A stretch of 64,000 nt of DNA. Source: Octopus vulgaris. Its lineage: Eukaryota. How positions within the stretch are numbered: the stretch's first letter is position 1; each line of letters starts with the position of its first letter. The stretch is taken from assembly GCA_951406725.2 (NCBI GenBank), contig OX597825.1, positions 78,988,001-79,052,000 on the forward strand. Reading direction: 5' to 3'. Made by a program: the position numbers and the translations under genes. A model generated the notes under the pieces. It was given only the letters and a program-made list of their open reading frames with translations. It was not told the origin of the DNA and did no database searches. Positions 23,019 through 55,100 of this stretch are shown here, piece after piece.

Positions 23019-23110
23019 CTCTTTTATGAGTGGGAGGTGTGTTGGAAGTCAATATATTGTCTACTTGTTGCACCATTGTACTTGTATGTAATGCCGAATC
23101 TGAGTTGGTT
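23019..23110 (-). CDS. CRTC1: CRTC/TORC coding exon carrying the main SIK/AMPK-14-3-3 site
   Basis: 92 nt, acceptor ttttttgtag|, donor AG|gtaagt. Reads (R)TNSDSALHTSTMVQQVDNILTSNTPPTHKR. RTNSDSALH is the CRTC hallmark (CRTC1 S151/CRTC2 S171). Phase 2 in, phase 1 out. Confidence 0.95.
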
Positions 23111-25728
23111 CTACAAAAAAGAGTTTACGGTTAGTGAATTGTTACCAGAAAAATGTGTGTTTATGTGTATGCTTTTAAGTGAGATGGAGGACAAATAAGG
23201 ATTCAATATTTATCAAAAGAAAAAAAAAACATAAGCAAATCACAGCTGAAAGATAAGAAGGTTTAAGTCAAGATTTTAATTAGAATAGATTCCTGGAAGG
23301 TTTTAAATTGCTTTCAGTTTTCAGGATTAAAACAGATACATCAAACAAAAAAAAAAAAAGAAATTGATCTAAGAAACAAATTCTACACAAAATGTTTTAT
23401 ATAATCCAAAATTCTAGGAAGGGCAAATATGTACGTCTGTTTTAAGATATCAATCATCAAGAGATAATAGACAATTTTGGCATAACAAATAAAGTGAAAT
23501 AACATTAAATTATCATATTTTGAAAGCTGGAAGAAAAACAAAAAAAAAAGAGAAATTATTTTTATTTTAATTTAATAATGAATACTCTATTGATTGAAAC
23601 TAAAATGGTATTTAACTAATTTACCCTAACTTTCCTATTATTGTAAATTAATAGCATCTCTGTTATTCACTTTCTCTCTGAAATTTCAGCATCCATCAAA
23701 TATAAATCATTAGTTAAAAAAATACAACAAATACTTTTATTATAGATCTTTAACTTTGCCATATGTAAAATTTTAAAAATTTAAACTGGGGAAAAATATG
23801 CATTAAAATAGAACAAGAGTTGTTGTTAAGTTTCAAATGAAAGAATGAAAATTCTCCATCATTAATCCAATGACAACAACTCATTTCTGTTATAAACAAA
23901 TCTCTAAACCAAATAAGAAAAATCTCCCCTTTTATATTCTTTGATTATCATCAAGTAACTAAACCACAATTGCAACAACTAAAATGAGGATTTTTAATAT
24001 TGTCACAACAAAAAAATTTTCTACACTATTTATTTTGAAAATGTTTTAAAATTCTAACAGAAAAGTAGTTCCACTAATTGATTCATAGTCTATCATCGTC
24101 ATTGTTTTAAGGCCCACTTTTTCATACTAACATGAATCAGATGGAATTCACTGAGACAGATTTTCTATTGCTCGATGCCTTGCTGTCAACTCCCACCTGT
24201 TTCCAAGTAAGGTAATATTTCCCACTGGCCAGACAGGTTTTCGTGAACAAGTGGAAATGAAGGGCACCTTTTGTATGACAGTGATGCTCAGTTACAACTA
24301 CCATACAATGTCAAGAGAAGGAGACACCAACACTCACACACATACACATATCCATATATGAAGGGCTTCTAGTTTCCTTCAACTAAATCCACTTGCAAAG
24401 CTTCGGTTGGCCTGGATCTATAAGAGGAGACACTTGCCCAAAGTGCCATACAATAGGACCGAAACCTAAACCACATGGCTCAGAGCAAACCACTCAACCA
24501 CACAGCCATACCCATACCTACACCTATCTGTTCCCTCTAGTAATACAACTCACACAACCTTTATAAATCCTATGAACAAACACAATAATAATAACTTACA
24601 TATAGTTAAGCACAAATTAATCAGGGCATTTTGCTAAAAGCTTTAACTGAAACTAGCACACATGTTTTGCATATTCTCATATAATAATGAACTGGTCTAA
24701 TCAGTTACCTTTACACTCTAAATTAACTATCAATCAAGTGAAATTATTTCAATACAAAACTATCCATAAGAATATGCTAAAGTCCCACGTTAGTTACAGA
24801 TACTGAAAGCCTGTGTTGTAAATAAATTTTTGAGAGCTGAATTATTGTCCAAGGCCATTTATGTTGCTGTTCTTGTTATTTAAACTGAGGTCAGTTTGTG
24901 ATCATTCTACATTTTACTCAAGGAGGGTATAGTTAGAACTAAATTATTGAAAGCATCTTTCTTAATTGTGGTTTAGCCTCAGGTCAACCTTGATCAAGTA
25001 AACCAATGATCAGAGTCATTCCAATCATGATCATCCATATTTCTGTTGGCACAGGCGTGGATGTGTGGCACCTGGAGCCCAAGGTTACAGCGACATAAAC
25101 AAACCAGTGCCAGTCGTCAAGCAGTAGTGGGGACAAACACAAACACTCACACAATGGGCCTCTACACAATCAAATTTACTCACAAGGGCTATAGCAGAAG
25201 AACTTGCCCAAGGTGCTGTAAAGTGGGACTGAACCTGAAACCACGTGGTTGTAAAGTGAGGTTCTTAACCACACAGTAATGCCAGTGCCTACATCACAAT
25301 AATTTTTAGGGCTTAGTTAAAGGAGGTAGGGCAGTGCTACTCACCTTTAATGTACTGTCTCCAAGTGAGAAAAAAATGGAAGGTATGCACAGACAGCAGA
25401 CCTTAACCAAACACTCTCAACAGAATGAACTTCACACAAAAAAAACCAGGTGATGGTATTAAATGGCAAGACAAATTGTTATCCAAAACAGGTGTAATTC
25501 ATTCAACGGTTTGAATGGTTTCTATCTACCAAATTTCATGCTTATGACTTTGGTTTACTTACTTGATCTAGAACAAAACTTCTACAATGCACTCCTTGAG
25601 AGATACAAAGAAAATTGAAGTTAAAGGAGGTAGGGCAATAAATCTTTTACTTGCTTCAGTTATTTGACTGCAGCCATGCTGGAGCACTGCTTTGAAGGGT
25701 TTTTAGTCAAACAAATTGATCTCAGAAC

Positions 25729-25760
<32 letters not shown>

Positions 25761-28700
25761 CATACATACACACACACACACAACAAGCTTCTTTCAGTTT
25801 CCCTCTACCAAATGCACTCACAAAGCTTTGGTTGACCCGAGGCTATAGTAGAAGACACTTGCCCAAGATGCTACATAGTGGGACTGAACTCAGAACCATG
25901 TGGTTGGGAAGCAAACTTCTTACCACACAGCCAAGAAATCCAGAATGAATGGCTACATTTTTATTTACCACTACCACCCTCTCTATAGTTTCTTGACACA
26001 AGCAAAAAAGGGAGCCTCTATATGTTAGATCAACCAACTAGAAATAACAATCAAATCTACCTGAAATTATATTGTACTGTCTTGAAATGAGGAGGAAAGA
26101 TCAGATAACATAGTATTTGGTGTATGTAAAGATAGGAAGGTCATGACAGAAATGTCTCTGATCCGACATCTGCTGGACCCAAGTAAACTTTGGGTAAACT
26201 ATAACAACATGTGACATTATTTAGAATAGATAAATTTAGTTGAAACATTTTAAAAGAAATTGTAATTCAAGTCAACATTTGAATCAAAATGAAGTTATAT
26301 ATATATTATTACCAGAAATTAAAAAGGGAAGTTTGACAATAGAATTATCAAAATACAAAAACAAATCTATTTGTAAAAATTAATTTGAAGATAGCAGCTG
26401 GTATTGATTTTAATCTCATCAACCACTTGTCAACAAAATTTCTTTTGATATGATTCTTTAAGCATCAAAATATTGGAAGTATCTATAAGGGGATGGGAAA
26501 GAATTGTTAAGTCATGTAAGATAATTGTAGACCATTCTATCTTAAAACCGATTATCATCATCATTATCACCATCATTTTGAGATCCATTTCTCCATGTTA
26601 TTAACTCAAGTTAGACTGGCCCACAATAAAGCCTCTATCCAAGTCAACTTACTTCTGCTTACTAAATGATCAACTGTAAAGCTGAAATGGCAAATATTGT
26701 CAAGACAGGCCAAGGAAATCAGGGTGAAGTCTTCCCAAAGAATATAATGCAATGATTATAGCAAGATTTGAAATCATGATCTTGTTATCAACAGCTCACC
26801 TTGTAAAAAAAACAAAAACCACACAAATATAAATATAAAAGCAAAACTTCATCTAATAACAATGTGGTAAAAACAAAATAAGAAAACTACAAGATTTTCA
26901 CACAAGAAGGAGTATAGTTGGTTTGCTCTTTAATTGTGATAGAATTACAATATGATGATGATGATGATGATGATGATGCTTGTAGTGTTCCTAAGAAGGT
27001 TTAATATCATGTTAAAGCAACGAGTTGCAGCTTCTGTACCCAGCTGGTTATAGACATAATTGCTGTATTCTCCTATGGATCATATTTGCAAGGCTGACTG
27101 ATCCATAAATATCTCTTCAACCTTACACCATATGGCTGCATGACATTGATTTAAATGACAACTGCAAGCTACATGCATGCACGTGCATGCGTGGACACGC
27201 ACACACTCAGCTGCGTATCTATTTCAAAATGGACGTTCCTATAAAAATAATTAAGTTTACATAGGATGGCAAGACCTCGAGCAATTGTTATATTTAATAT
27301 CCATCAAAAGGATTAAAAATAAACTAAAACCTGATATGTGTGTGTGTGTGTGTGTGTGTGTTCACTGAAAAAACCCCAAATAGTGCAAATGTTTAATGTT
27401 GCATATGATAATAGGTTCATTAACCCTTCACACATGCTACAGAATAAGAGAGAGAGAGAGTTTATGCTTGAATAGATGCAGGGTTTGGAAATTGAAGAAA
27501 GTAAACTAAAGAAATTCTAAACCAATGAGAAGATTGAAAGAAATAATAATATTGAAGGTGCATCAAGGAAGATTTCACTTCTTCATCTGTTAGCAAAAAA
27601 AATCAAAAAAAGGAAAATCAATTTAATTTTACTTCTGATATTGACTGATCTATTTATATAGTTTTAAAAATAACTCCCAAGAAATGGCTAGGTGTTATGA
27701 AAAAAAAATCAAAATAGGATTTGCTAACATATATTAAAACTGAAAGCGTATAACACATGAAATCCAAATATCTATGTTCAAATCACACACAGTACAGCAC
27801 AATCGCAGAGACTGCATATTTTGTGAAACATTACTAATGAATTGTTGAAAATAATAATTCTAAAATAAATGGTCTTTCGATTGTTGTTGTTTAGCCACAG
27901 GTCAACCATGACTGACAGATCTATGATCAAAAGCATTTCAGACATGACCATCTAGTCTTTCATTTCTTTAAATATATCCTATAACTACGTTATCTAATTA
28001 TCCTTCCCCTTTTTTTTTTAAGGCTGTAGGATATGGTTTCAGAGAACTGCTGTTTTTAGTAGAACAAACAACCACATAGAGGTTCCTTCATTATATTAGA
28101 ATCAATTAGAGATAAGGAAAGAGTCTAATTGTACAATGTGCTTTAATTACAAACCTACTCACAATTATCTGAGAACATCCATGCAGTGATCAATGTTCAA
28201 AAAAGCACAGAAGAGGTTAACAACAGGTGTAACAAGGGAGACCCAGCTGACCCATGGTGGCATGAAGACTACATTGAGACTAACTCTTAAGTCACTTAAG
28301 AAAAATTTGTTTGCCATGATCATCATCATTTAACATCCATTTTTCCATGCTTGGAGACAGAATTTGTTGAGGCAGGTTTTCAGGATCCAGATGCCCTTTT
28401 GATCCCCAACCCTCATCTGATCCCATACAAGGTTAACATTTCCCATGGCCAGACAGGTTTTTTTTCCAGAAAAGACTGAAAACAAACATCGCTTGTATGT
28501 GAGTGATGTTTGTTTACAACTATCATGTGATACTCGTGCACGCACACACACACACACGTTTATATGCATACTTTCTGTTTACCAAATCTACTCAGCAAGG
28601 ATTTGGTAGGCCCAGGACTATAGTAGAAGATAATAACCCAATTTGCTGTGCAGTGGAACTGAACTTGAGACCACATAGTTAGACAGCAAGCTTCTTAACC

Positions 28701-29855
28701 ACACAGCCATGCATGTATGCTCTGATAATATCTTTGTGGATGATTAATAATCTAAGGTTTAAAATTACATCTAAAAGATGTTACAGAAATTAAAATTATT
28801 AATAAATTATAAAAATGTTTCAAAACTGAATAAACTATAGGAGCCTCTTTATGGTAGGTCAACCTGCTAAAAATAGCAGGAATATCCCCCTCAACTGATA
28901 GTCTATTGTCTTAAAAAGAGATAGATACATTGGCTCACACAGTCTTATATAAGTTATGCTGAAGGAACAGACTACATTGTCATGACTGGAAGACCTTTCA
29001 TCAGAAATCTGTACATGCAAGGCAAACTTGCAACTAAACAAAAACCGCCAGTGAACTATTTCTCAAAAAAATTTAATTAAGATAATTGTTTGTTTTTATT
29101 TTCTGTTCATCTGAGATCATTAAAAAACCAATTAATAATTAATGAATAAAGATTTAGCTGAACAATTCACTTCTTATTTAGCCAATACGAAATATTTTTA
29201 AGGGAAGCATCAGAGGAGAAACATTACTATAGCAACCCACTGGAGTATTAATTTACACAAGATTTGGAATTCATTAACCAGCAATAATAGCCAGGTATGT
29301 TTTGCCTTTTTCTTTAAAAAAAAAACCAAAAAAAAAAAAAACATGCTTGCAAATGCACAAATGTAAATTTAAAACAAACATCTAGATTACATGACCTGAT
29401 TTTAGAAAGTTTTTAAGAGCCCAACTAAACATTGGTTTTTGAAGATTTGTCTGTGTTTGGTCCCTCTTTTCATCTACACACTCAACGAATAATCTTTAAA
29501 AAAAACTTAAAAGGGTTAAAGAAAAATTATATATTTATTCAATATTGCAGCTTCTAACACATTCCTATCATTTATAAATATATGCTAAGGAAACTCCAAG
29601 ACCGGAGACAAAAACTATGTAACATATTTGTTAGAATCTATTTAAAAAGACAAATGCCTGCCTTATGATTTGTCTGTCACTGTTTGACACTGTCTGTTTG
29701 GACGGGCAGCCTAATTTTTGATTATCAAGCCTTATTACAACTCCTAGGAGAAACACAGCCTTCCATGTGATGCTTGAGGTAGTGTCTCTCCTAGTATATA
29801 TTAAATTTTTTTCTTTTTGAAATCCAGTTACAAATTATCATCACACAACAGTTAC

Positions 29856-30320
29856 ATCATCATCATCATCATCATCATCGTTTAACGTCCGTTCTCCATG
29901 CTAGCATGGGTTGGACGGTTCGACCGAGGATCTGGAAAGCCAGAAGGCTGCACCAGGCTCCAGTCTTATCTGGCAGTGTTTCTACAGCTGGATGCCCTTC
30001 CTAACGCCAACCACTCCGTGAGTGTAGTGGGTGCTTTTTACGTGCCACCTGCACAGGTGCCAGGCGAGGCTGGCAACGGCCACGGTCGGATTGGTGTATT
30101 TTATGTGACACCTGCACAGAAGCCAAACGAGGGGGAGCTGGCATCGGCCACAAGTCGGATAGTGCTTTTTACGTACCACCAGACCAGGAATCCTGGCTGG
30201 TTCAATTCGATTTCGATTTCGCTTGCCCCAACACGTCTTCGCAAGCAAGGGGGTTGGCATGGGTGCCTGTCGTACGGTCAGATTGGTGTATTTTACGTGC
30301 CACCGGCACGGAAGCCAGTG
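29856..30320 (-). mobile_element. Young retroposon with (ATG)n tail and internal tandem units (relatives near 1, 6800, 16930, 18735, 63880)
   Basis: (cat)n-cgtttaacgtcc...gctagcatgggttggacgg; repeated ggtg(c/ta)ttttacgtgccacc units; CpG-rich. Confidence 0.8.
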
Positions 30321-31013
30321 ATCATATATGTTATATATGTTGTTGAGTGGTGAAAGTGCGCTTATCCTGTCATAAAGCCACCTTCCCTTCTCTCAAATAT
30401 AACCCCACTCGGTCAAAGAGGATTTTTTACTTTTCGTCTAAGTTACTTGGTAACCTCACTACCACTTGGTGGCATGAACAAAAACATCCAGTACACACTA
30501 TGTTAGGAAGGGCATCCAGCTGCAGAAACTGTGGTTATGAAAGGAAATTTTTAATCACACACCCATATTGCAATCTGTATGTATGTAGGCGTATGTATGT
30601 GCATGTATGGTTGTGAGCCACTTTGGAAAAGCGACTTTTACTGCAGCTTTGGTCTGACCAATGCCTTATACAAAAGTAGACAAACTGTATGAAAGCCTGT
30701 TACGCACATGTGTGTGTGGGTGGGTGGGTGCTTGCATGTGGCTGGGTCAAAGTTTACATTTTGAAAACCACATGAGAGCATTGAGCAAAAAAGATTTTTC
30801 TGCTGACATTCTCAGTCAAACTAATCTTGTAGCTCTGCACCTTTGAAGACAAGTGGGATAATATTTAAAAAACAAAACACTCTTATTTGCAAAACAGGTA
30901 AGAATTAGTGACAAGGAGGGCATCTAACTGTAAAATAATGCCCTAATAACATGTATTCATCCAACCCATACTAGCATGGAAAAATAGATGTAAAATGAGC
31001 AAATGCATAATCG

Positions 31014-31062
<49 letters not shown>

Positions 31063-31562
31063 CATACACCACATATGCCAGTATGGAAGGTGAACATTAA
31101 ATGATGATGATGATATATATCTGCTTCTAAATAAAATTTTTCATCTAAATAACTATATGTACATGGATCACTGCCTGTGCTTTTGCTTATCTCATCTAGC
31201 GTATGCTTATATACAATTCATCACTATTGTATATATATATATATATATCGGAAAGAAGTCAGCATTGATGCCTCATAAATTTGCTAAAGTAACAAATAGA
31301 CACTGCAAGGTAGACATTTTAAGCCAGGGGAAAACACACAGCTCTATTCCTGCATTATGTACTATTTATATTCCTAAATTTAAATTTAAATAACTCTTCT
31401 GATAAATACTTTTGTAGTATGTTTATCATATTAGTAAATTCATTAAAAAAAAACAGAGAAAATAACACATTACAGAGGCAACAGAGATTTTAGAAATAAA
31501 TGCTTTCAAATAGACATAGCTACTTCAGGGGTGATATGAAACATTTTTTTTTTCTTTTAATA

Positions 31563-31835
31563 CAGTGTTCTCCACTGGGATCCAGAGTCCATGCAAGCAA
31601 AATAGTAAATTGGTGACCTATAGTAATATATTAAGGGTCCATGAAAAAAATTTTGCTTAGATGTATTTCTTTCTCTAACATTTTATAGAGTTTGACTTAC
31701 ACAAGTTAGTGTGAGAAAAACAAAATAGCAATTTTGAAAGAGACTAGTTTATAAACATAAAATGGCTGCAGGGGTCCACCAGAATAGAACAGGATCAAAG
31801 AGGTCTACAGATGAAAAAATGGTTGAGAACTACTG
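31563..31835. mobile_element. hAT-type MITE
   Basis: Ends CAGTGTTCTC... / ...GAGAACTACTG; perfect 8-bp TSD ttttaata. Confidence 0.8.
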
Positions 31836-32488
31836 TTTTAATACAACTGTACCATTACCTGAAGAACTGGTTATGGTGAAACTAATTGTTTCAATAGACT
31901 GAAGGATAATATTACTGAATTACATTTTGTGTTATCATCAATTTCCAGTTTTTCATGTGTGCATGGTTTGGATGAAGATTATTGAAGAAGGTTTTCTATG
32001 GTCAGATGTCCTGCCTATTGCCAGTGCCTATTCGTTTCTGAGCAAAGTAATATTTCCTCCATGACCAGACATGGAAATGAATGACACTGATTATATGACA
32101 GTTACAACTGTTTACATCATGGAAACACACACACACATATACATATATATGTGATGGGCTTCTTTCAGTTCCCACCTATCAAAACCACTCACAAGGCTTT
32201 GGACAGCTTGGAGCTATAGAAGACACTTGCCCAAGGTGCCACCGTGTGGTTGGGAAACAAACTTCTTACCAAACAGCCACTTGTTTAAAATTTGTTTACT
32301 CCTAAGATATAAAAATGTATGTGTGTGTGTGTGTGTGTAGATGCATCTAAGAGTACAGCATTTTTTACAAGAACTCTCTCACTCCTTATCACACACTATC
32401 TTTCTCTTCATTGTTGTTTGTGAGAAAGCGTGTGTGTGTGTGTGTGAGAGAGAGATAGTTAAATGTACTTCTCCTTAAGCCTCTATAC

Positions 32489-34583: not shown

Positions 34584-34600
34584 ATAGGTTCTTTTATCAT
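34584..34600 (-). CDS. CRTC1: Candidate alternative first coding exon of CRTC (MIKEP(I))
   Basis: ATG ATA AAA GAA CCT AT|gtaagt: strong donor, phase 2, in frame with the 23110 exon. Preceded by CT-rich, 5'UTR-like sequence. Confidence 0.5.
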
Positions 34601-35050: not shown

Positions 35051-35087
<37 letters not shown>

Positions 35088-35176: not shown

Positions 35177-35219
<43 letters not shown>

Positions 35220-37397: not shown

Positions 37398-38635
37398 TGT
37401 TCCTCTAATTTACAGCTTTAGTGCAAGACCACTTATTTTGAAGCCGGGTGTAAGCTGATTGGATAAACTCCCCAATGATTAACAGGCACTTATTTTATAA
37501 ATGAAAGCTAAATCAATCCTGATGAAATTTGAAAACTCACAATTCATGGATATCAACAAGAAGACAAACAAATTTGGAAGAGAAAAAAAAGGTCAAATTG
37601 TAGCAGGGGTAGAGCAAGTGCATTTATCATCACAATCAGCCTATTTCATTTATCCGTCTCAAACTCATGTGTAATAACGTCTCCAATATCATTTACATTA
37701 AAAATCTTAATTCACATAGATTATCAGGTTACAAATAGATTATCTTGTTCTATGCTGAGGTTTATGTTATATAATTACCAATCGTTTATATTTTAATTAA
37801 CTAACAGATAAGTTGTTTTGCATGTGTGCGTATATATACACACACACACACATTTCTCTTGTTATAAGAGTAAATAACAGTAAAGCGCCAAAACAAAATG
37901 TTTTCCAACAGTCTAGTCAAGACTGTCAGTTCTCAGACTTTTAAATAAACTAAAATGAAACTTCAGATAAAGGAGTCTACATGGATGTAACAAGAAAAAT
38001 AATGAAATATAGCTTATTCTTTTACAGTTTTTATGAGTGTTTTTTTTTCTTGTTTTGTTATGTGTTTTGAAACATTTAAAAATGCCAACAACAGCTGAAT
38101 GATAATAATAAAAACGAGAAAAAAAAACATCAGTAAAGCATTTAATTAACAGCATTTTAAACATCAAATTACTCTGGACTGAACTTTGCATAAAGCTCAT
38201 TAATTCAAACAACTAATTGCATAAATACATATTGAAATCAAATATCTTCTGAAAATTGTTCACAGTTAACTATACTATTTGAAAGTCATGAAATAAACAC
38301 AGATAGCATAATTACACTGTCTGTAGAATATTTTTCAATAAAAATACAATAAAATAAAAACATTTAAAGTGTACATAATCAGCAACTTTTTTGCTATTTT
38401 CTTATAAGAATCAATCTGAAGTTTAACTAATACTACATCTCATCTGTATATGACATTCTGATCAAGAGCAATAGATTATTATTATTATTATTATTATTAT
38501 AAAAGAAGTCATTATTGTTGTTGTTGTTGTTGTGTTCTGCCAATCATAAATGTGAAAAGAAAGCAAGATGCAAGAGAAAAGAAAGAAAAAAATTATTTTA
38601 AGTCCTGCTGATAAGAGTTGTAAGCCAAACCCTAC

Positions 38636-38661
38636 AGGTTTCCCACTTTCAAAATGGCCAT
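38636..38661 (-). CDS. CRTC1: Candidate alternative first coding exon of CRTC (MAILKVGN(L))
   Basis: gggATG GCC ATT TTG AAA GTG GGA AAC CT|gtaggg, phase 2, with a CT-repeat leader upstream. The donor is only moderate. Confidence 0.3.
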
Positions 38662-39314
38662 CCCAACTAACTGTCATGAAATCCTTCACTGCACACCCTA
38701 GTCCCTGTACATCAGGAGAGAGAAAGAGAGAGCGAGAGAGAGTGTGTGCTATCTCTGCACTCAGTCCATTTGACTGCTTCATAGAGCTGACTGGTCACAT
38801 ACTATTTCCACTCAGGCTCCCTAGATTCACACAGACACACTTATATATAATTATATACATCATCCTCTTGATACCCATATTGCGCTCTAACTACTTTCCT
38901 CCAGAGCATTCCTTTGGAACTGTCTTTCAGCAGCCCTCAAATTGCATCTGCTCAAAAGGAACATTAGCCACAATCTCACAGGTCTCAGAGAGCCTATATG
39001 AAAGCCAAGGCCACAACCCCTTATTTCCAGAGCAAACAATACAATATCAATATGAATATATGTATTTGTAATAATCCATTTTTCGTTGTAAATGCCCTTA
39101 TTTTGAGTATTATTCCCTTCTGTCTAATGCTAGTTCTTCAGTTTAAATACAATAATAGAAAAGCTGCTCAGCAGCAAATAATAAAATTTGATTCTTAATA
39201 CAAAATGAAGGAAAAAAGAACAAAAATTATTTTAATTAAGTACATTTATGGTTAACTGAAATAAAATTACTATGCAATTGTAGCTCAAATAAAAACTGAG
39301 GTTGTAAAACAAAG

Positions 39315-39830: not shown

Positions 39831-40690
39831 AGACCAACTCAACCAAACTAAAAATATTATTAATTTCTAGTATGGTATCAAGTACTCTTTCTCCTGACAA
39901 TCAACACTAAACATGTGTGTGTAAGTGCATACTGCAAATTATTCTTAAAAAAAACAACAATTTGTACAAAAAAAAAATTTAATTAAAAAAAATTAAAGAA
40001 TGGCATTTAAAGAATAAGGAACTTGATTGAACAAAAGGCAAATTATTTAGTAAATATTTCATGATTCTGTAATTCTATCTGTTGGAATAAATTCTTTATT
40101 ACCATTTCATCCATTCAACTCATCACACACATTCACACTTTCAATACTTCACAGTAGGCTGGTCATCATATCACTTTTACAAACAAGAATTCAATCGCAG
40201 TAAGAAGTGTCATCATATTTATATTGTCTTATGAAGAGAGAGTAAACGTTATTGGCTTACAAGCATTGTTTTACTGGCTTGGATTCTAAAAAAATTAGAT
40301 ATAAGTCAAAAAGGGAGAAAAATGAATGCTTAAATGAGAAATATTCCGAGTAGTTCAGCAACAATCTATTATTGAAGTTATCCTTATACTATAATGCAAG
40401 GTTTAATTATTTATGTTAAACAATATGCGAGAGAATTTAGCCCAATGTCAAGGCTAACTTCAGAGTTTTCATGCTAAGTGTCAAGTCTTTCATATGCCAA
40501 TGCTTGTATTAACCACTACGGTCAGAGAATAAGAATTGTTAGTAGTTTTATTGCATTCATTAAATGTTTTCATGCAAAACATGCCCTGGAGCAGTAAGAA
40601 AGCAGTTCATACCAACACTGCCATCATTGCAGCCACCAAGATGCTAGGGAAAGGGGAAGGACTTAGACTGAGAGGCAATCACAAACTCAC

Positions 40691-40726: not shown

Positions 40727-41639
40727 CTGCAATATGTATAGGCTGTTAGTGTGATCAGGTTCAAAAAGCAAAACAAAGAACTCTTTATAATTTTAATTAA
40801 CAGTGGCCATTGGGTTTTGTTTTGTTTTTTTCTTCTTTTTTTTGGGGTTTTTTTTTTTTTTTTCTTTAAGAGGGATGATAGTAAATAAGGTGAGGAGTGA
40901 AGTAAAGCTGAATTTTATTCCTTGCTACTGGGTCAGCAGACTGAACTTCCATGAAATGGCAGTTCATCAAGTTTGAGATTTTATTAGGTTGAAAGCAATG
41001 TGCTCTCTGGCAAAAGACAGCCCTTTATGATGTTTAAATCTCATGTGATGAGAATTTTAGGCAAATCTCACTTCAAGCCTTTTCAACCATCATGCACAGA
41101 TATTTAAAAAACAAAACAAAACAAAAACAAAAAAAAACATTGAAACTGAAAACAAAAACAGGATAAGTAACTGAAGGTTTTAATAAAATGAAATATTAAC
41201 AAATAAAAATAACAGAACATAAAACAAATAAAGAATATATTTTAACACACATCTAAAAATAATTGTGTCAGTTCATTAAGGTTTAGTGAGTACACACGCA
41301 CACACACAACATACCTTTATAAAACTTTTTTTTTTTTAAATTATCAAAATAGCCAAATAATTAATGATTTCTGAATAAACAAACATCTATTTTTATAATT
41401 TGAAAATATTCAGCAGGTTACCCATTTCCCCAGGATGAAAGGGCATGTTATTTTTTTTTCTTTCTAGTTTTCTTACATTAATATTATAACTTACTATTTT
41501 AATCATAATTAGTAAAGGAGATTCTATTGCCCCAAACCAAATTTCACCACCCCCACCACCACCTTGAGTTTTTTTTTTTATTTAAATCAGAAAGATGACA
41601 CAAAACCTTAATATGATCAGACCAAAGACAATACCTTAA

Positions 41640-42260: not shown

Positions 42261-42293
<33 letters not shown>

Positions 42294-42524
42294 ACTTTCA
42301 TTATCTATTATTACACTAAGTTGTTACTTAGTTGACTTTCATTGCCAATTTCACAAAATTTTGGGGGGTACCAATGTGTGTGCCTATGTAAAGCCTGTAT
42401 ATATTTATATACATATATGTTAACGACACAAACACATATTCTCTGTTATAACAAAATTAGATATGTGTACTCTTTATGATTTGAATTGTTGGTTTGTTGC
42501 CAGAAGCACGCAGACAGCACTCAC

Positions 42525-42614
42525 AGACAAATTCATATAATACTAGTGAGATGTTCGGACTGAATGAATATATGATGGACATGGGTAATGCCCAAAATCC
42601 TAAATTTGTCCAGT
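42525..42614 (-). other. Candidate 90-nt exon; has a stop in the CRTC (phase 2) frame
   Basis: Long U tract + ttttgtag| acceptor, |gtgagt donor. Phase 2 reads LDKFRILGITHVHHIFIQSEHLTSII*; the phase 1 frame is open. Confidence 0.45.
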
Positions 42615-45600
42615 CTACAAAAGAAAATACAAAAAAAAAATTATATTGGAGTGATGTTCTAGCTGCCAGTAATAGTAACATCTATTACTATTGACCATTA
42701 TTTGTCTTTCCTTGCACCAGTTTGGACTACCAAAGTATTGTTTATTAGATATTTTTCACTATTCAATAAAAGAAAAATCAAGTTACTAACTTTAGCACAA
42801 ATATTTTCCATAGTTAACTGTAAAAGAAATCTTGTCAGAAACAGTAGCCAAAGAGATAATGAATATTAATTTCTAAAATTATTCAAGAATTATAGGAAGT
42901 CAATTTATCAATAAATGTTCAAAAATTATTATGTATCAATTTAGTATAAAAAAAAAAATAATAAGAGGGAAAAAACTCCCCAAAGCAAAACATGATTTCC
43001 ATCATTTTTTGACATTGCCAAATTGTCACTGATGGATGCAAAAGTGTGTGTGTGTGTGTGTGTGTGAGTGTGATAAATCATAAGTGACATTTGATTTAAA
43101 TATTTCTTGTTTAAATACATTTTTGTTTCACGTATTAAAGGAAAAGGACCTAGGTATATTCAAGTAGCTAAGAAATTTAATTTACAATCATGGGGTCTGG
43201 GATTGATTCCACTGCTCCATAGATCAGGCCTTGGGATGAAATTGGGTAGATGGAAACTGCATGCAAAACCTTTGGATAAGTTCTACTTGTAGCTCAGCAT
43301 CAACCTTATCATATTGTGTTGTGCTGATTCAATTTGAGAATTACATGTTAATTCAATCAGTAGGTAGTTCAATTGATCAACCAACTGAATGCTCATTGTT
43401 GGATGGTCCATCATTATGTTAACACATGTTGAATTAACTGCAAGAACTAATCTACATAGATTGGTTTGCAGTTACAACTAAAATTCTTAAATCGTTAAAT
43501 GCCAATCAAAATATAATTACCAAGGTGAGATTTCAAAATAAAAGAAAAGTAATGAGTTGTTGAAATAAGGAAGAAATGATTATAAAACTTGGAGATCAGT
43601 TGAAGAAGAAAGATGTAAACAAATTTGATTTATTTACACATTAAATGTAATGAATAGTTTGAACAGAGAGCTGATATTTGAACACAAAACTTAACTCATT
43701 AATTAAGAATTCTTGAATGAATGAAATAAATAGAAAAATATATAATATGACTAAATGCTTAAGAATTGAAGATATCTCACATATTCTATCAAAAGTACAC
43801 ATCTTCATAAAATTAGATTGTTATCTCAGCAGTTTTTTTATTGTTTTTTTATGTATGATTAAAAAGATATAAAAACCAAGTATTTTCTATTGCTGCTAAC
43901 AACAAGAGATTTGTCAGTGGCATATTTATAAGTTTCAGGTGTTTTTGTTTTCTTTTTCTTTAGACAAAATATGGTCAAGATCAAGTTTTTAGGTCATCTA
44001 ACAAACGTGAAAATATGGCGAGTGAGATTTTTCTCAAGTAAGCTCTTCAAAATGTGTGCAAGTAATCCTAGCAGTATGAGGATTGAATTGTTATGGTAGA
44101 ACACAATCTCTTTGTAGTTAAAACTAAGAAAGATTTGTCTTTAGAGTTTTCTTTCTTTTCTTTGTACAGTGTTCATATGATCTAGTTGTTGAAATCAGAT
44201 CTTAATAGTTATTTATTTGTATGACTGAGTTATAATCTCTTAAAATGTGTTTTGGCAATTTTATTCTGCCAAACACAACACGAAGGTTTGAGGCAAAGCA
44301 GTGTTGTAGCTGGTTCGTTCTCCTGCATATCTCGCTTATCAATGAATAACTATCTCTTATACTACCAAATGAGACAGCCAAATGTCATTACAAGATGAAC
44401 GTAGTTCACAAACAGGGTACAGAGGTTACCACTTAGGTTGTGGAATTGATAATTTTGAATATGTCAACATATTTTTCATTATGATGAGAAAGATTAAAAA
44501 CTCTGCTAAAAACACCTACAACAAACCATACTCATTTCAAAAGTATTTATTTCCCAGACTGCACATCATGAATCTAACTGGACTATTTTGAGACCGTACT
44601 ACCTGCCCACAAGTCAAGTCACCCAGACTAACACATTCACTTTTTCAAGAACACTGCAAAACCTGAGTCCAGTTAACTAAAGATAAAAATGTAAGATTAC
44701 TTGGTGGTGATCCAGATGGTTATACTTAACCATTTCTATTGTGTGCTAGTACCATCATGTAGCCTTTCTGCTGTGGTTTAGTCTCAAAGTAAGATAAACC
44801 TTTGCTCAATAGTGTTCCAAACATAGCCCTCTTGTCTAACTAGTAGACATGTTATTAACCACAGAAAGATAAAAGATGAATTTGGCTCTGGTAGTATTTG
44901 AACTCAGAATGCAAAAGGACATAAATACATAGCATTCAATTCCTTGTTCTACAAATTCTCTCAATTGCAAATAACGGATGATCAAAATAGAAGATAAGCT
45001 GATAGAGGCAATAATATCAAGAACAAGAAAAAATATATTCAGAAAACTAAAAATTTGTATTGGTAACAAACATCTAAGAGATGAGAAAATTCTGGATGTG
45101 TGGAGAGAGAGAGGAGATTCTAGGATATAAATATGGTACATGATCAGGAAATCTAAGTAGTGAAAGAAATGGATTTGTAAAAGCAGGAAATTAATGAATT
45201 TTATATGAAGATCAACAGATGGAAATTAATAGAAACCAGTGATCTAGTCTCAAAAAAGTTTTTAAAAATATAATAGAAAAGAATGAAAAAAATGAAATAA
45301 GATTTTAAAAATTTACCTAAAGAACTTCACATAGATAGCCATAAACAATATGAATATAGTTAATCAATACCAGCTTTAGAAATGGATTTCATATCATTTA
45401 ATGCTAATGAATATGGTTATGATGATGAAGTAGCCATAAAACATATTAATCAGTGATGTCTAGTTATTTTCAAGACTGAAGTGAATCTGAATTATCAAGA
45501 AAATGTTCATTATCTTACTGTAAGTATTTAAATAAAAATATATTTTGCCCAGTTTTGTATACTCAATATGATTCAAAAACCAAACAAGAGTAACATTTTT

Positions 45601-45726
45601 ATTTATCATTTTTTAAAGCTTATTTTGTCAATAATTAAGGATATAAAAGAAAATCCTACAGAATACATAAAAATTAACAATTCCTTACTTGGGTCAAAAA
45701 AAAAAAGTAGCCTATGAAATCCTTAT

Positions 45727-45762
<36 letters not shown>

Positions 45763-45789
45763 GCATATGTCTACATAAAGTAACTCATG

Positions 45790-46180: not shown

Positions 46181-46252
46181 CTGGATGGATGGGTATGTGT
46201 GTGTGTAAAATCCTGCTTCGAATAATAAAAATAATAGCAATAATAGTAATAA

Positions 46253-47203
46253 TTCTTTCCACTATAAGCACAAGGCCTAAAATGTGTGTGTGGATGTGGG
46301 AGGGAACTAGTTAATTACATCAAACCCAGCGCTCAACTGGTACTTATTTTATTAATCTTGAAAGGATGAAAAGCAAAGCTGACCACTACAGAATTTGAAC
46401 TCAGAATATAAAGCCAGAAAATAAGCTGCTAAACCGTTTGATGTGCTAACAATTCTGCCAGAGTTTGTTGTCTTAATAATAATAATAATAATAATAATAA
46501 TGGTTTCAAATTTTGCACAAGCCCAGCAAGTTCGGAGGAGGAGGTAAGTCAATTTTATCGACCCAGTACTTGACTGGTACATATTTTATTAACCCCCAAC
46601 AGGATGAAAGGCAAAGGCACAAGGTCAACAGTTTTGAGGGAAGGGGCAAGCCAGTTACACTGACCCCAGTACTTGACTGATAGTTCATTTGCTCAACCCT
46701 GGAGGGATGAAGGGCAAAGTTGACCTCAGTGGGATTTGAACTCAAAATGTTGAGTCAGAACAAATACTGCAAAGCAATCTTTCCAATACTCCAACAATTC
46801 TACCATTTTGCCATCTTGTTTTGAAGTAAGGGGGTTAGTTAATTTCATCAACTCTAGAACTACACTGGTACTTATTTTCATCAACCCTGCAGGGATAAAA
46901 AGCAAAGTTGACTTCAGCAGGATTTGAACTCAAGGTAGAAATCTTGAACAAATACTACTAGGGAGTTTGGCCAACATTGGAAGTTGAAAGAAACATTGCA
47001 AAACATCTTGTCTGACTCTCTAATGATTCTACCCTGTCTACCACTCTTAATAATAACAATAATAATCCTTTCTACTGAAGGCACAAGGCCTGAAATTTGG
47101 TGGAGATGGGATCGGTCAATTAAATCAACCCCAGTGTTTCACTGGTACTTAATTTATCGACCCTGAAAAGATGAAAGGCAAAACCGACCTCAGTAGAATT
47201 TGA

Positions 47204-47245
<42 letters not shown>

Positions 47246-47901
47246 GGCATCAAGAGGAACATAAAGGAAATTGGAATAGAGTGCCCAGTAGAATTGTTGC
47301 AAAAAGTTTTCTTCCTTGGCACGGCCAGAATAATCAGGAAAGTATTAGATAGTTGAAAAGAACAGATAGCATGGTAACGTAGGCTGCAGGCAGCAAGCCC
47401 ACTACATATGCAAAACTCTACAAGTTCCAACAAAACCCAAGATAAAAAGGAAAGTAATAATAAAAACAATCCTTTCTACTATAAGCAGAAGGTTTGAAAT
47501 TTGGTACTTATTTTATTAACCCCCAAAAGGATGAAAGGCAATGTCGACCTTGCTGGATTTGAACTCAATATGATGGACTCTCCTGTTGAAAAAAACAACA
47601 TATGAGTGTTATCTTTACCTAACAACCTGCACAAATGATTTTGTTTATAGTGACCAAATGTATGTAGCTGTACATTAGCTCACTCCCTCCATGAACTTGG
47701 TGTTACCTGAACAGGTGCACAGATGAACAGGTGCACACTTTGCATCAGATGTCAAAGTGATTGCAGAGCAACCTGAAATTAAGTATTTTGCACAAGAACA
47801 CAACACACCACTCAGTCTAGGAACTGAAACCACAACCTCAGAATCGTAAGTGCAACACATTAACCACTTGGCTATGCTCCCTCAATATAATAATGATGAT
47901 G

Positions 47902-47939
<38 letters not shown>

Positions 47940-48140
47940 TTCAAATTTTGGCACAAGGCCTGCACTTTTTTAGTGGAAGAGGGAAATCAATTGCATCAAC
48001 CCCGGTACTCAAATGGAATGTTTTACTGACCCGAAAGGACGAAAGACAAAGCCAACCTTGGTGGCATTTGAACTCAGAACAAAGAACCCAAAGAAATACT
48101 GCAAGGCATTTTGTCTGATTCTCTAATGAACCACCCTTCT
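46253..48140 (-). mobile_element. SINE cluster: same family plus a CORE-like SINE at 47575-47880 and long (AAT)n
   Basis: Repeated units with the shared ggatgaaaggcaaag core. Confidence 0.8.
47246..47462 (+). mobile_element. R4/Dong-type retrotransposon 3' end within (AAT)n
   Basis: GIKRNIKEIGIECPVELLQKVFFLGTARIIRKVLDS* (stop 47354-47356), flanked by TAA repeats. Confidence 0.8.
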
Positions 48141-48154
48141 TAATGATGATGATG

Positions 48155-48237
<83 letters not shown>
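48141..48237. repeat. (ATG)n/(AAT)n microsatellite
   Basis: Directly visible. Similar (AAT)n at 15442-15525, 47206-47245 and 47888-47939. Confidence 0.95.
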
Positions 48238-48239
<2 letters not shown>

Positions 48240-49238
48240 AGTTTGGCAAGAAAAGTGAAGAAAATTAATGAAATATAAGAAGAAACAAATCAATAACAAG
48301 TGACAACATTCAATATGAGTCGAAAGATACAACAACCACCACAGCAACAACAACAAAAAGAAATAGAAAAACAAAGAGAGATTAATATAAAATTAGAGTT
48401 AAATTCAAGACAAAAGAGATTTGCAGTTATTTCTGAATTGTTCTTAATTCACCGGGTTTTCTAAATAAAGATGATTAAGACTCATTGACAAAAATAATAA
48501 TAATAAAAGAAGCTAAAAACAATGCAAACAAAAAGAAAGAAAAAGTGGTGTCTGCAAACACATGAATAGAAACCAGTAGATTTGTTGGTTTGTTGGATGG
48601 TTTTGTTTTTTTTTTTTCTAATCTTTTTTTTTATATTTCTGCTGTTCTTTTTTGTCTTATTTTTAAGTAGCGTGTTCAGAATTCAGCAGCAGTTGCACAG
48701 TTATCAGCGTACTCCTTCCTCAAACACTAGTACAATAGTGAGGTGTTGTAGCTAAATCAAGTATTTAGCAAGCCAGACAAAACAGTACCCAACTTGTGAT
48801 ACAAATAGTAGGCTTCTTCTTCATTGGGAAAGAAACTCCACATTATTTGAAGCATGAAAAGAAATTTAATTTGGGTGCTGTGAGTACGAAGTTAGGAAGA
48901 TAAATAAATACAGAAATAAATTGCTCTTACTGACTGAATACAAATCAGGTTTTATTGAGTGAACTTATAATAATAAGTATGAAAAAAATGTGTAAAATAC
49001 TTTAACAGAAATAACCCACAACACGCTACAAAAGTGGAGTTGGGTTGTTACCAGAAAACAATAATTTTTTTAAGACTAATTTCTGGACCATTTTTTGCAG
49101 AGTGAAATATAATTAATGAAATCATCTCTAATTCACTGCAGAGAAATAATAAATATATACTGACTCCCCTGCAGCATTTTAAATTCAGTGCAATGATATA
49201 CCACCAAGGTTCACAAGCTGACAAGAAAGTTTCTATAT

Positions 49239-49381
49239 CAGTCATGGGTAACCTTTTCCCAGAAGCAGGATACATGAGTTGTGGCTCATCATAAGGTAGG
49301 CCACAACTAAAAAACTGAAGGTAATTTTTCATTATGTGTGCCATTAAGAAAGACTCACAGGCTGTAGGTTGCCAATGGCTG
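49239..49381. mobile_element. Short hAT-type MITE
   Basis: CAGTCATGGGTAACCT ... AGGTTGCCAATGGCTG; degenerate TSD ttctatat/gtctattt. Confidence 0.55.
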
Positions 49382-50892
49382 GTCTATTTAGTTGCTTGAC
49401 ATGTTTAAAAAATGTAGCCATATCTCCTTCCAATCATGTCTTGCCATTTCATACATAAAAGCAAGATACATTGGATAATAGTAATCCTAAATACTCTATG
49501 TCTGAGAAAAAGAATGGGAACATCGTGATTGGAATGTCTTTGGCTCAGTTCCGTCAGGGCAGGATTAGATTCTGAACAACAATAAATAAATCAGCTCTAG
49601 TGGCTGTGTGGTTAAGCTTTCTTTGCAACCATGTGATCTGAAGTTCAATCCCCATTATGTGACATCTTAGGCAAGCATCCTCTACTATAGCCCTAGGCCA
49701 ACCGATCAATGCCTTGTGAGTTTCATGGAAGCTGTATGTGTGTGAGTTTTATTTGTTTCAGACTTTGGATTGCAGCCATGCTGGGGCACCGCCTTGAAGA
49801 ATTTTTAATTCGAATGAATAGACTCCAGTACATATTTTATTTTTTTTTTAAGCCTGGTACTTACTCTGTTGGTCTCTTTTTCTGAACTGCTAAGCTACAG
49901 GGACATAAACACACCAACACCGGTTGTCAAGTGGTGGTGGAGGAGAAACACAGACACAAAGACATGCACGTAAGCACACACGCACACACACAATGGGCTT
50001 CTTTCAGTATATGTCTACCAAATCCACTGACAAGGTTGCCCAAGATGCAATTCAGTGGGACTGAACCCAAAATCATGTGGTTGGAAAGCAAGTTTCTTAC
50101 CACACAGCCGCACTTATGTATCATATATTACATATGTAGGTGTGTATACGTTTGTGTTTGTTCTCCCAACTCACTGCTTCACAACCAGTAAGTGAATGTG
50201 GTAGATGGAAACTGTCTGGAAGTCCATCATATATGACAGGCTTCTTTCAGTTTCCATCGACCAAATCCACACACAAGGTCCAGGGATATAGTGAAAGACA
50301 CTGGTCCAAGACCAAGTGATTGGGAAACAAGCTCCTTAACCACACAGCCACATCTGTGCCTGCAACTTTGAAATAATTCACTTTTAGCATTGAACTGAAA
50401 AATGATTGCTCTAAAAATATACAATTTATCAAATTTACAAAGCCAAACCGTCCATTCTAGCACTAAGAAGAGAAATGCAAAATGTTTGAAAAGGAAAAAG
50501 CATTACACTGACAGTAATGTAGGAAAATGAAAGAATAAATAAAATCTGATTTGAGTATACACCTGAAGAAATAGATTAAAAAAGGGAAGAAAATAAGCAG
50601 CTTCTGAACTGACAACATACAATAACAGTAGAGAACATTCTAGATTGTTGTCATGTGTTCTTTATTTATTTCTTGTTTCTTACCTGTTTCTTTGTTTTTG
50701 TATAACTCACACACACGCACACACACTTACTCTCTCTCTCTCTCTCTCCATTATTATATTTCAAGCTTTATTTGATCTGAGTATCTACCACACTCCTGTT
50801 TACTTAGTGGGGGTCTCCTGGACCTTCAAGTAATATCAAATTTGTTCCTGAATAAGCTGAGAATCAAAATTCTATTTCATGAATAATAATAA

Positions 50893-51560
50893 TTCTTTTT
50901 ACTATAGGCACAAGGTTTGGAATTTTGGGGGAAGGGGCTAGTCAATTCCTCTGCTCAACTGGTACTTATTTCATTGATCCCAAAAGGATGCAAGGCAAAG
51001 TTGACCTTGGCAGAATTTGAATTCAGAACATAAACTGGAAGCAATGCTGCTAAGCATTTTGCCTACTGTGCTAACCATTCTACCAGACACCACCTTATTA
51101 ATAATGGTTTCAAGCATCAACCGCAGTACTCAACTGGTGCTTATTTTATTGACCCCAAGAGGATGAAAGGTGAAGTCAACCTAGGCAGAATGTGAAGACA
51201 GACAAAATGCTACCAAGCATTCTGCCTGGCATGCTAATGATTCTGCCAGCTTGCTGCCATCACCTTCTTAATAATAATAATAGTAATTCTTTCTAGAATA
51301 GGCATTAGGCCTGAGATTTGGCAGGGAAGGGCTAGTTGATTACAGTAATCCAGGTGCTCAACTAGTACTTATTTTGTCAACCTGAAAGGATGAAAGAAAA
51401 AGTCAACCTCAGCAACATTTGAATGCAAAATGTTAAGCTGGAAGAAGTAATGCTAAGCATTTTGCACAGTGTACTAATGATAATAAAAATAGTTTCAAAT
51501 TGGGACACAAGGCCAGCAATTTTGGGAGATTTAGCTAGTTGATTACATCAGCCTCAGTGC
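50893..51560 (-). mobile_element. Tandem copies of the same SINE family
   Basis: About 4 units with AAT spacers. Confidence 0.8.
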
Positions 51561-52160
51561 AGACCTCTGACGTTACATGTACCAAATTTCCATCATTGCA
51601 AATACCTTCAATAAGACATAAACCTGAGAATTCCTTAAAGAGGAATCAGTATCTGCAATGAACATATTTTTACCACACATCATGAAAATGGCTTGAACTC
51701 AGAAGAGAAACCATAATTTCAAAGTTCAATCACCATGGAATTTGTTGCTAGAAAACTCTAATGAGAACAAGTCTAGTTTCTGTAACGGGATATAGATAAT
51801 TTAATCAACTCCAGTATATTTTTGTTCCTTATATTATTGACCCTCTGGAAAATAAAATACAAGCCTTATTCTAATGGGGTTTGAATTCAAAACCCAAGCA
51901 AAAACAAGAAGACAATTAGGGAACCTCAACATGGTCAACATGCTACAAATAGCAATCAAATCTCACTCAAATCATACCCAACTGTCTTAAAGGAAATAAT
52001 GAAAGGCACACACTGAATAATGTAGTCTTAGATATAATATATTTAAAAAGAAAATCAAACATAGGAATATTTTTGGCACACCTTTTATCATACATCTGAT
52101 CAAGATTGACCTGGGGGTTAAATAAACAAAATTCAAAGTGTCTGAAAAACACTCCCCTAC

Positions 52161-52163
52161 CCT
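52161..52163 (-). other. Candidate 3-nt microexon (AGG)
   Basis: gctaac branch point, ~27-nt pure pyrimidine tract, tag|AGG|gtaggg. Confidence 0.4.
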
Positions 52164-55100
52164 CTAAAAAAAAAGAAAAGAAAAGAAAAACAGTGTTAGC
52201 GAAAGCGGTGCTGAAACAATAATGCTTGTTCTTTAAAACAGAAACAACCCACTATCAAAGGACTGCAAGAAGAGAATAAAAGAAAGCTATGTTTTACTCG
52301 AAATTCTGCAATGTTGGCAGCACCAATGTTAATGTGGTCTTGAAAAGAGGCAGCCAAGTTGAAACGAAATTCACACCATAGCAATACAATAAAAACAATT
52401 CATTCACAGATTATCCAAAACACTAAGTATTTCTTTCTTCTATTTATTATTATCATCATCATTATTATTATTGTTTCTTATTTAGGTACAAGGCCAACAA
52501 TTTGGGAAGAATACAGATGATTAAAAACAAAGTTGATCTCCGGAGGATTAACAGGTATTTGTTGTGGCTCTTTATGTTCTGAATTCAAATCCCAGTGAGA
52601 TCAACTTTGCCCTTAACCCCCTTGGGGCCAACAAAAAGTACCAGTTAAGTACTAGGGTAATTCAATAAACTAACCCCCACCCTTCAAACTTTCAGGCCTT
52701 GTGCCTATGTTATAAACAATTATTAACATTATTTTGATACCAGCAATTGTAAATAATTGTAATATAATACAGTTGAGGAAAGTACTTAGCATTTCCATTA
52801 GAAAATATTTGTGGTATTAAAATAAAAAGAAAAAATATAATATTTTGGCACCCACCACAGAAAAAGAAAAGAAAATTGGCATTTTTAAAACATACAAGCT
52901 TCTGTTACTTCCTCACTGCTGTTAGAAATAATTATTAGTTTTTGGTTTTGATTTAGACACAAGGCCTGAAATTTTGAGGGGATGGTGAGTAGTCAGTACC
53001 ATTGGCCCCAGTACTTTTATTGATCCCCAGATGGATGAAAGGCAAAGTTGATGTCCTCAGTGGGAGTTGAACTTGAAACATAAAAAGCCAAGAAGAAACA
53101 CAACAAAACATTTTGCTGATGTGCTAATGAGTACCAGCCTGTCATCTCCTAACAGAAGCTACAAGAGTGACAACTGAGGCAAGTCACAAAGAGTCGAGGT
53201 AATAACCTAGAGTAAATTAAGATGTCCCACAACTATGTAAATGTCCTTCAACACTACAAATGCCTTTTTCAGGCTAAGAAACACAAATGAAACTTCTGAT
53301 TAGAACTATCAAACCAGATCGGTCTTGCTGCTCTCATCAAGTTTCTCACTGTAAAAGTTTATGAGTTTGGTCTTAGAAGAGGCCAAGCTGATGGCATTGC
53401 CAAACCTATAGAGTTTATCTGGAAATGGTAACACTCCCTTTTTTGTGAGAGCGTCAAGTCATGGACTCTCAGAAGTTATCCATAATCCTTAACCTAAAAG
53501 TTTTCTTGAATAGTCTCTAGATGAGACCATTCAGATTGTCTTCATTATTGCCCAGAATTGTCCAGAGGTCAACATCACTAATACCCTCCATTAACCCTCT
53601 TCAAATTACTTGTGTGGACAGTCCACTATTTGCATTGCCAAGTGGGCAGTGAGCAAAAAGCAAAAAGCAAGATGCTAAGTGCTCAACCTCAGTCTGTGAG
53701 TGACTCAAGATTGCAGCTCTAAGAGGTGAGTTTTGGAAAAACAAGCCTTGCAAATGACAACAACCATACCTATTCACCATCATCATTATTATCCAAGAAT
53801 CTCTATAGAGGTCAGAGTCTCATATTCAGCTTTCAGTAATCAGCTCCCTGTCAGAAAAACAAAATCTATCGAGACTTACCAAACAGATTATATACAACTT
53901 AAGAAGGTCTGCTGCAGTTTCACTAGATTCATTGTGTCGCATCAACTAATTTTACACAATTCCTGCATTCCTCAAGATACCATTCCTATCTCCCACTAAT
54001 ATTAACAATTTAATATAAAATAAAATTAAATTAAATAAATCAAATAAATGAATGAAAGAAAAATTAATGTCATCATTTAGAATATATAGTAATTATAAAA
54101 GCTGATATTATTAGAAAAATCACCTCCATTGGCCTATATAATCATTAAGTGACATTTGAAATTGTCTTCAGTTCCAGAGAAATTGACAAATACACCAGAG
54201 AGGCAAGTACAGAAGTGATAGAATCTATACAGAATTCAGAAGACAAAAAGAAGAAAAACAAAGATAACACCTAAGTAGATGTCAAGAAAACATTTTGATT
54301 GACCAGCCTTCAACCACAGTTCAAAAGGCAAACACAAACTGTCAAGAATCCTCACACTGGTTTTAAAGATCAGCCCCGAGGCTGAGGGTGGGGGGGGTCT
54401 CCTGATATCAACACAAGATCATTGGTAGGGTACTAAAATAGACACACACACAGAGGCTTCTTTCAATTTCTGTCTACCAAATTCACTTACAAGGGTTTGT
54501 TCGGCCTGAGGCTATAGCAGAATACACTTGCCCAAGGTGCCACACAGTGAGATTGAACCCAGAACCATGTGGTTGGATGGCAAACTTCTTACCACACAGC
54601 CACACTCATGTAATAAGAAGTGTTTAAAGAATAACATTGAAAGAAAAAAGGGTCAGCAGTGATGCCTGCATGATGATGTAATAACAACAGCAAGACAATG
54701 ACCCACACACCGTCTCAAAGTGTCCAGTATCAGCAAAAACTTGCATCAATAGCCACAAAGTTGATAACTTGCTACACTTGGAACTCTGCTAACAGTATAA
54801 AATGATTAGAGAAAACATATGGTGCAAGTACACACACACACACACTCTGAAAATGACTAAGCTACAATAATATAAGACATGCTTGTAAATACTGACAAAG
54901 AAAATACAGGCATGGAATCACAGACAAATAGTGCTTCTTGTAAATATTTAAATCCTGACAGGTGAAAAAAAAATATTGCCTTGAAAAAGTTGGAGAAGCT
55001 AAGTATAAATTCTTTGTTATAAAAATATTTAGAAAGTGAGAGTTGAGAAACAAAGTTGGTAACAGTGAGTGCACTGAAGCTACTTAATAGAAGAAAAATA

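Follow-up and report, generated by a model that had tools for sequence, protein, structure and literature searches.

An optional 36-nt exon of octopus CRTC exchanges WRR for LPR before phospho-site II and may tune 14-3-3 retention

CRTC proteins gate CREB-dependent transcription in memory, metabolism and clocks. Can the splicing of one such gene set how tightly its product is held back? The question is raised by a stretch of 64,000 nucleotides (nt) of Octopus vulgaris DNA (OX597825.1:78988001-79052000), hereafter the window, which contains the middle part of a CRTC gene on its minus strand. An earlier note on this DNA had proposed that whichever exon is spliced upstream of phospho-site II (TNSDSALH) supplies the residues at −3 to −5 of that site, and had nominated six stretches of the preceding intron as candidates, with strongly repressible, site-less, CREB-binding-less and degraded forms as the outcome. 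We find that the core of this proposal is real but narrower and turned round: there is one old cassette exon, there are two forms that both keep the site, and the form that skips the cassette is probably the more tightly repressed. The elements that carry the argument are listed in order of transcription, in window coordinates.

93337-93273, minus strand (outside the window): CRTC exon 4, the constitutive donor, which ends in AG; from protein mapping
23111-64000, minus strand: in-window portion of the exon 4-exon 5 interval (70,162 nt in all), which contains the cassette; from mapping
40727-40749, minus strand: weak 3′ splice site of the cassette, with a CTAAC branch-point match at −23, a poor pyrimidine tract and a second AG 16 nt upstream
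40726-40691, minus strand: cassette exon, 36 nt; from its AG/GT ends and Octopus isoform mapping
40685-40690, minus strand: strong 5′ splice site of the cassette, CCG/GTGAGT, rank 3 of 1727
23110-23019, minus strand: CRTC exon 5, 92 nt, which carries site II (Ser codon 23103-23101); from mapping

The reading frame across this junction accounts for the switch. Exon 5 opens with the last base of the −3 codon (ag/A ACC AAC TCA), as had been read earlier; the constitutive donor of exon 4, which lies outside the window, had been missed. When the cassette is skipped, the AG of exon 4 meets the A of exon 5 and the default junction reads WRR-TNS. The cassette, with AG/GT ends and no stop, runs from phase 2 to phase 2 and preserves the frame, encoding LYPHLNGVSLP and the first two bases of the −3 Arg codon. 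It starts with G and ends with CG, and the inclusion junction reads WRR-LYPHLNGVSLPR-TNS, that is, LPR before TNS. Arg is kept at −3 by both routes, since the split codon begun by the AG of exon 4 is completed by the first A of exon 5.

Gene models of related octopuses contain both forms. The cassette peptide maps exactly to residues 131-142 of Octopus sinensis X1 and 129-140 of Octopus bimaculoides X1, and the exon is included in 12 of the 14 RefSeq isoforms (6 of 7 in each species); isoform X3 lacks it in either species. The exon occurs once in the genome, and its intact splice sites, identical peptide and single-copy status suggest that it would be included in O. vulgaris as well. By an approximate weight matrix its donor ranks third of the 1727 GT sites in 23111-52300, and its acceptor scores lowest among the real exons scored; the matrices were built on approximate frequencies, and the acceptors scored did not include that of exon 6. 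The idea that the upstream exon sets positions −3 to −5 and that splicing switches them is thus borne out, by one conserved cassette only.

What the exchange may do is suggested by the mammalian paralogs. The octopus site II Ser is the equivalent of CRTC1 S151, CRTC2 S171 and CRTC3 S162, a site described as the gatekeeper for 14-3-3 binding in CRTCs (Sonntag et al. 2017, PMC5325614). According to that study, two Arg occupy −4/−3 in CRTC1 and one in CRTC2/3, and swapping W146RR (CRTC1) with L157NR (CRTC3) lowered CRTC3 activity by more than 50% and raised that of CRTC1 more modestly, an effect its authors credit to the higher 14-3-3 affinity of the two-Arg form. One published determinant at the gatekeeper site, WRR versus LNR, coincides with an optional exon. 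CRTC1 has WRR at S151 (PMC5325614), and so does not present there the LxRxxS site that the earlier note had cited. LPR had been taken for the strongly repressible form; that direction is probably reversed, the two-Arg WRR being the more repressed in mammalian CRTCs (PMC5325614).

We compared 402 CRTC proteins, a sample chosen from search matches that is no census and covers only part of the isoforms. Site II is present in 335 of them: 185 are of the skip type, 134 have an insert at exactly the cassette junction and 16 are unclassified. Arg stands at −3 in 329 of the 335. There are 47 distinct inserts, of 5-24 residues, with Leu at −5 in 42, Met in 1 and another residue in 4; the first residue is Arg or Ser in all 47, as a split AG/N codon dictates. 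The optional insert occurs at the cassette junction in gastropods, bivalves, amphioxus, a hemichordate, a tunicate and vertebrate CRTC2/CRTC3, and 21 species entries besides the two Octopus species have both forms annotated. By group, this applies to 13 of 17 mollusc entries and to all 10 deuterostome entries tabulated (two amphioxus, the hemichordate Glandiceps, the tunicate Styela, zebra-shark CRTC2, and CRTC3 of four rays and one carp). Record P0395 has a 6-residue insert whose last residues are LSR. Among the sequences from arthropods (43), Priapulus (2), echinoderms (4) and Lingula (2), and among 9 of 9 CRTC1-type vertebrate proteins, none showed an insert, and a weak search for squid or annelid inserts yielded none among 6 candidates from proteins shorter than 382 residues. 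Oysters (P0239/P0240, P0249/P0250, P0050/P0051) add a variation of their own: two versions of the site II exon, TNSDSAIHTS and SSSDSALHTS. Both occur with the cassette as well as without it, and the exon has probably been duplicated into copies that are used in a mutually exclusive way.

How far this pattern reflects common descent differs with distance. None of 5000 shuffles reached the alignment score of the octopus insert with those of abalone, limpet and mussel, and the mollusc inserts are clearly homologous to one another. The octopus-amphioxus comparison gave p ~0.013, uncorrected and one of 12 comparisons, and those with vertebrate, tunicate and hemichordate inserts gave p of 0.16-0.79, which does not show sequence homology across phyla. 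Inserts of different phyla have no more in common than their position, inferred phase and terminal Leu-x-Arg; we lean towards a single origin over repeated gain.

The cassette might instead matter for its own content, as a docking motif (for example the mollusc Y/H-L-N-G core) or a spacer between the LSPP region and site II, with Leu-x-Arg merely keeping site II working. In cephalopods, gastropods and several bivalves the central part of the insert is conserved, and vertebrate inserts carry conserved cores of their own. Tunicate inserts, however, have just 5-6 residues and keep little but Leu-Ser-Arg, and in the mammalian swap three residues alone altered activity (PMC5325614). We regard this explanation as improbable.

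A different possibility is that inclusion chiefly improves the kinase site through Leu at −5, making the exon-containing form the more repressed, as the earlier note had assumed. Only the inclusion form fits the AMPK-family consensus LXBS/TXSXXXL (Leu at −5, basic at −3, Ser/Thr at −2, Leu at +4; PMC5325614), the skip form having Trp at −5 like CRTC1, and Leu or Met is kept at −5 in 43 of the 47 distinct inserts, which otherwise vary over 5-24 residues. The ratios that follow were computed from raw matrices of peptide-array data (Johnson et al. 2023, PMC9876800, supplementary table 2; rows AMPKA1, MARK2, MARK4 and SIK1-3). Leu is better than Trp at −5 for all six kinases (1.12-2.24), but the loss of Arg at −4 offsets the gain (Pro over Arg, 0.35-0.82), leaving a net inclusion/skip ratio of 0.59-1.22, with SIK2 at 0.59; amphioxus and hemichordate insert forms score lower (0.26-0.62). 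On these ratios we reject a kinase on/off switch. Since the Leu gain approximately cancels the Arg loss, SIK, MARK and AMPK would phosphorylate both octopus forms, and the conserved Leu seems to make up for the Arg that is lost. The direct swap between mammalian CRTCs also went the opposite way (PMC5325614), and we think it unlikely that kinase preference is the main effect of inclusion.

We favour, with somewhat better than even confidence, the explanation that inclusion or skipping of the cassette swaps LPR for WRR or the reverse before site II, inclusion loosening 14-3-3 binding and easing activation of the exon-containing CRTC by cyclic AMP (cAMP). One CRTC gene, as the single TORC_N match suggests, would give rise to two messages that both encode Arg at −3; both are annotated in two Octopus species and other animals and would presumably be made in O. 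vulgaris too. SIK, MARK and AMPK, judged by the human matrices, would act on either product. By analogy with the mammalian swap, the two-Arg skip form would be held more tightly by 14-3-3 and, like CRTC1, be weakly cAMP-inducible; the one-Arg inclusion form, by analogy with the CRTC2/3 proteins, would be retained less and activated by cAMP more easily. The switch would thus likely tune 14-3-3 retention rather than remove site II. Inclusion might further be regulated by tissue, conceivably in neurons.

The hint of tissue regulation comes from mouse and from the surroundings of the cassette. Mouse Crtc2 has a 69-nt exon, MmuEX0012798, that table S2 of PMC8797185 classes as eMIC-sensitive, its inclusion falling on Srrm3/4 loss; 69 nt is the length of the 23-residue insert in chimpanzee CRTC2, and the mouse exon is probably the counterpart of the octopus cassette. 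The octopus cassette fits the eMIC (SRRM3/4) code only in part. It is short, with a weak 3′ splice site and a CUAAY-type branch point (the CTAAC at −23). For the UGC motif expected near a 3′ splice site, TGC at −5 (overlapping the acceptor) and at −44 is an ambiguous match; a long AG-exclusion zone and a long UCUC-rich tract are missing, given the second AG 16 nt upstream and the poor tract. Downstream lie an Rbfox TGCATG at +115 and a QKI-type ACTAAC at +148, for which chance expectation is 0.15 and 0.20 per 300 nt; they are leads only.

Several observations weigh against a loosening of 14-3-3 retention by the cassette. The hemichordate (Glandiceps) insert has Ala at −5, and three further inserts, each from a single record, lack Leu or Met there. 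The mammalian swap used LNR rather than LPR, in overexpression reporter assays with a modest change in CRTC1, and covered only three residues of an insert (PMC5325614). The kinase matrices are those of human enzymes and assume that each position acts independently. The sole O. vulgaris-labelled model (P0065) is the skip form, RefSeq isoforms are gene models rather than measured levels, and the identity of MmuEX0012798 rests on length and order only.

The other nominated stretches fared differently from the cassette. All six, joined in silico, have the coordinates, AG/GT or ATG/GT ends and translations that had been given for them; the one at 52161 works as a 3-nt version and in no other. Only the cassette (LPR-TNS) rises above chance, the remaining five, chosen by eye from their splice ends, lying at chance level.

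34584-34600, minus strand: rejected candidate, MIKEPI-TNS
38636-38661, minus strand: rejected candidate, MAILKVGNL-TNS
42525-42614 and 28163-28168, minus strand: rejected candidates with a stop just before site II
52161-52163, minus strand: rejected candidate of 3 nt, xG-TNS

Their donors rank 14, 49, 79, 117 and 121 of 1727, with 123 sites scoring at least as high as the weakest. The intron has 21 stretches resembling an ATG first exon, compared with 28 for the opposite strand and 16 on average over 20 shuffles; of pseudo-exon donors it has 33, compared with 20 and 27 in the controls. The junction peptides of the five occur in 0 of the 402 proteins; decay-bound or non-coding forms would be invisible among proteins, so that for the two candidates with a stop this means a lack of support, not exclusion. 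Repeats do not explain the candidate at 42525 (42470-42680 is single copy), and around that at 38636 the stretch 38560-38760 touches a short dispersed repeat adjoining, not inside, the candidate. As a separate observation, 52161-52163 on the minus strand, which would insert a single Gly, combines a fair donor with the highest acceptor score obtained; it is without protein support. Elsewhere in the intron, ~29985-30392 is GC-richer (53-58%) and open in each of the three phases of the minus strand; it is probably a repeat fragment.

These results speak to a many-way switch, in which further exons and internal promoters in the intron would yield site-less, CREB-binding-less and degraded forms. 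The canonical dinucleotides of the candidates, the splice sites of 52161-52163 and the alternative N-termini annotated in insects would agree with it. Set against this, none of the candidate junctions is found among the proteins, candidate counts are in line with those from shuffles and from the opposite strand, and exon 1 is the start of every one of the 14 annotated isoforms of O. sinensis and O. bimaculoides. We consider such a switch highly improbable. The site-less, CREB-binding-less and degraded forms of the earlier note are not borne out: both real forms have Arg at −3, and none of those 14 isoforms starts after exon 1.

The remaining CRTC exons mapped here place the cassette within the gene.

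127332-127222, minus strand (outside the window): CRTC exon 1; from protein mapping
121352-121245, minus strand (outside the window): CRTC exon 2, which carries site I (GGSLPNV); from protein mapping
109140-109036, minus strand (outside the window): CRTC exon 3; from protein mapping
20531-20470, minus strand: CRTC exon 6; from protein mapping
19744-19701, minus strand: CRTC exon 7; from protein mapping
17711-17402, minus strand: CRTC exon 8, with the TORC_M match and site III (GSLPDL); from domain search and mapping

Profile search placed a TORC_M (PF12885) match inside the window (E 1e-9) and a single genome-wide match to the CREB-binding domain TORC_N (PF12884; E 5e-18) 63 kb past the window end. 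Phospho-sites II (TNSDSALH) and III (GSLPDL) are both found in CRTC exons of the window; TORC_C (PF12886) is known from precomputed annotation of matching Octopus proteins, its exons lying beyond the DNA mapped here. The closest relatives are proteins labelled O. sinensis, O. bimaculoides and O. vulgaris, and the first 499 residues of P0065 match the genome letter for letter, exon by exon. Other parts of the gene vary too. A Gln/His-rich exon at 9290-9802 (minus strand) is skipped in X6/X7 of both Octopus species and in P0065, and its middle portion is absent from O. sinensis models. Outside the window, at window coordinates of about -4607 and -18803, there are an alternative acceptor, through which PSLTQ is gained or lost, and an optional exon of 18-19 residues close to the C-terminus.

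Why the three mammalian CRTC paralogs behave differently has been posed as an open question (PMC5325614). Tentatively, and at somewhat less than even odds in our judgement, the common ancestor of molluscs and chordates already used the cassette as a switch between a tightly 14-3-3-held and a cAMP-responsive CRTC; after the vertebrate duplications CRTC1 would have fixed the skip form, CRTC2/3 keeping a skippable exon under SRRM3/4 influence. If so, the functional split of the paralogs would be an older isoform switch frozen into genes, and splicing could still convert CRTC2/3 into CRTC1-like proteins. Skip isoforms of mouse Crtc2/3 should resemble Crtc1 in their behaviour, and molluscs, octopus among them, could adjust CREB output through the splicing of a single gene.

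The cassette itself is already present in gene models; what appear new are its link to a tested motif and the breadth of the pattern. Outside subscription papers, we found no account of its role or of a WRR/LxR difference tied to an optional exon. The word 'exon' is absent from PMC5325614, and a 2026 preprint on exon orthology that covers O. bimaculoides (bioRxiv 10.64898/2026.09.05.749416) never mentions 'crtc' in its main text; its supplements may list the exon.

One of the known systems closest to the octopus switch is the difference between CRTC1 W146RR and CRTC3 L157NR (PMC5325614), which concerns the same site, the same three positions and the same contrast of two-Arg and one-Arg forms in 14-3-3 binding and cAMP response. 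In mammals this difference is fixed between genes, whereas in octopus one gene has both forms via the cassette; the CRTC2/3 Leu-x-Arg itself derives from an insert with annotated skip forms. Mouse MmuEX0012798, the probable counterpart, is also alternatively spliced and appears in PMC8797185 as a table row without functional comment; at 69 nt it is longer than the octopus insert, and the likeness in sequence is limited to the terminal Leu-x-Arg. Regulated splicing is also reported at exon 13 of Crtc2/CRTC2 (bioRxiv 10.1101/2024.09.09.612108; PMC8753376), including a decay-inducing neuronal exon in mouse, but these events affect a later exon, which in the mouse study lies at the TORC-C domain, and have no connection with site II. 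The PMC5703972 supplement lists a 126-nt Esrp-dependent exon, SpuEX0020626, in sea-urchin CRTC. In Daphnia, CRTC delta-2 (PMC11061156) likewise alters a 14-3-3 site by splicing and is proposed to tune activity; there exon 2 is involved and site I is deleted, whereas in octopus the flank of site II is rewritten. Octopus has a second optional exon on a 14-3-3 site: exon 2, which carries site I (GGSLPNV), is left out of one isoform in seven in each of the two Octopus species, and 1 of 6 amphioxus isoforms as well as several from insects lack the motif too. This skipping parallels Daphnia delta-2 (PMC11061156) and possibly also a 102-nt mouse Crtc2 exon and a 105-nt neural zebrafish crtc1a exon.

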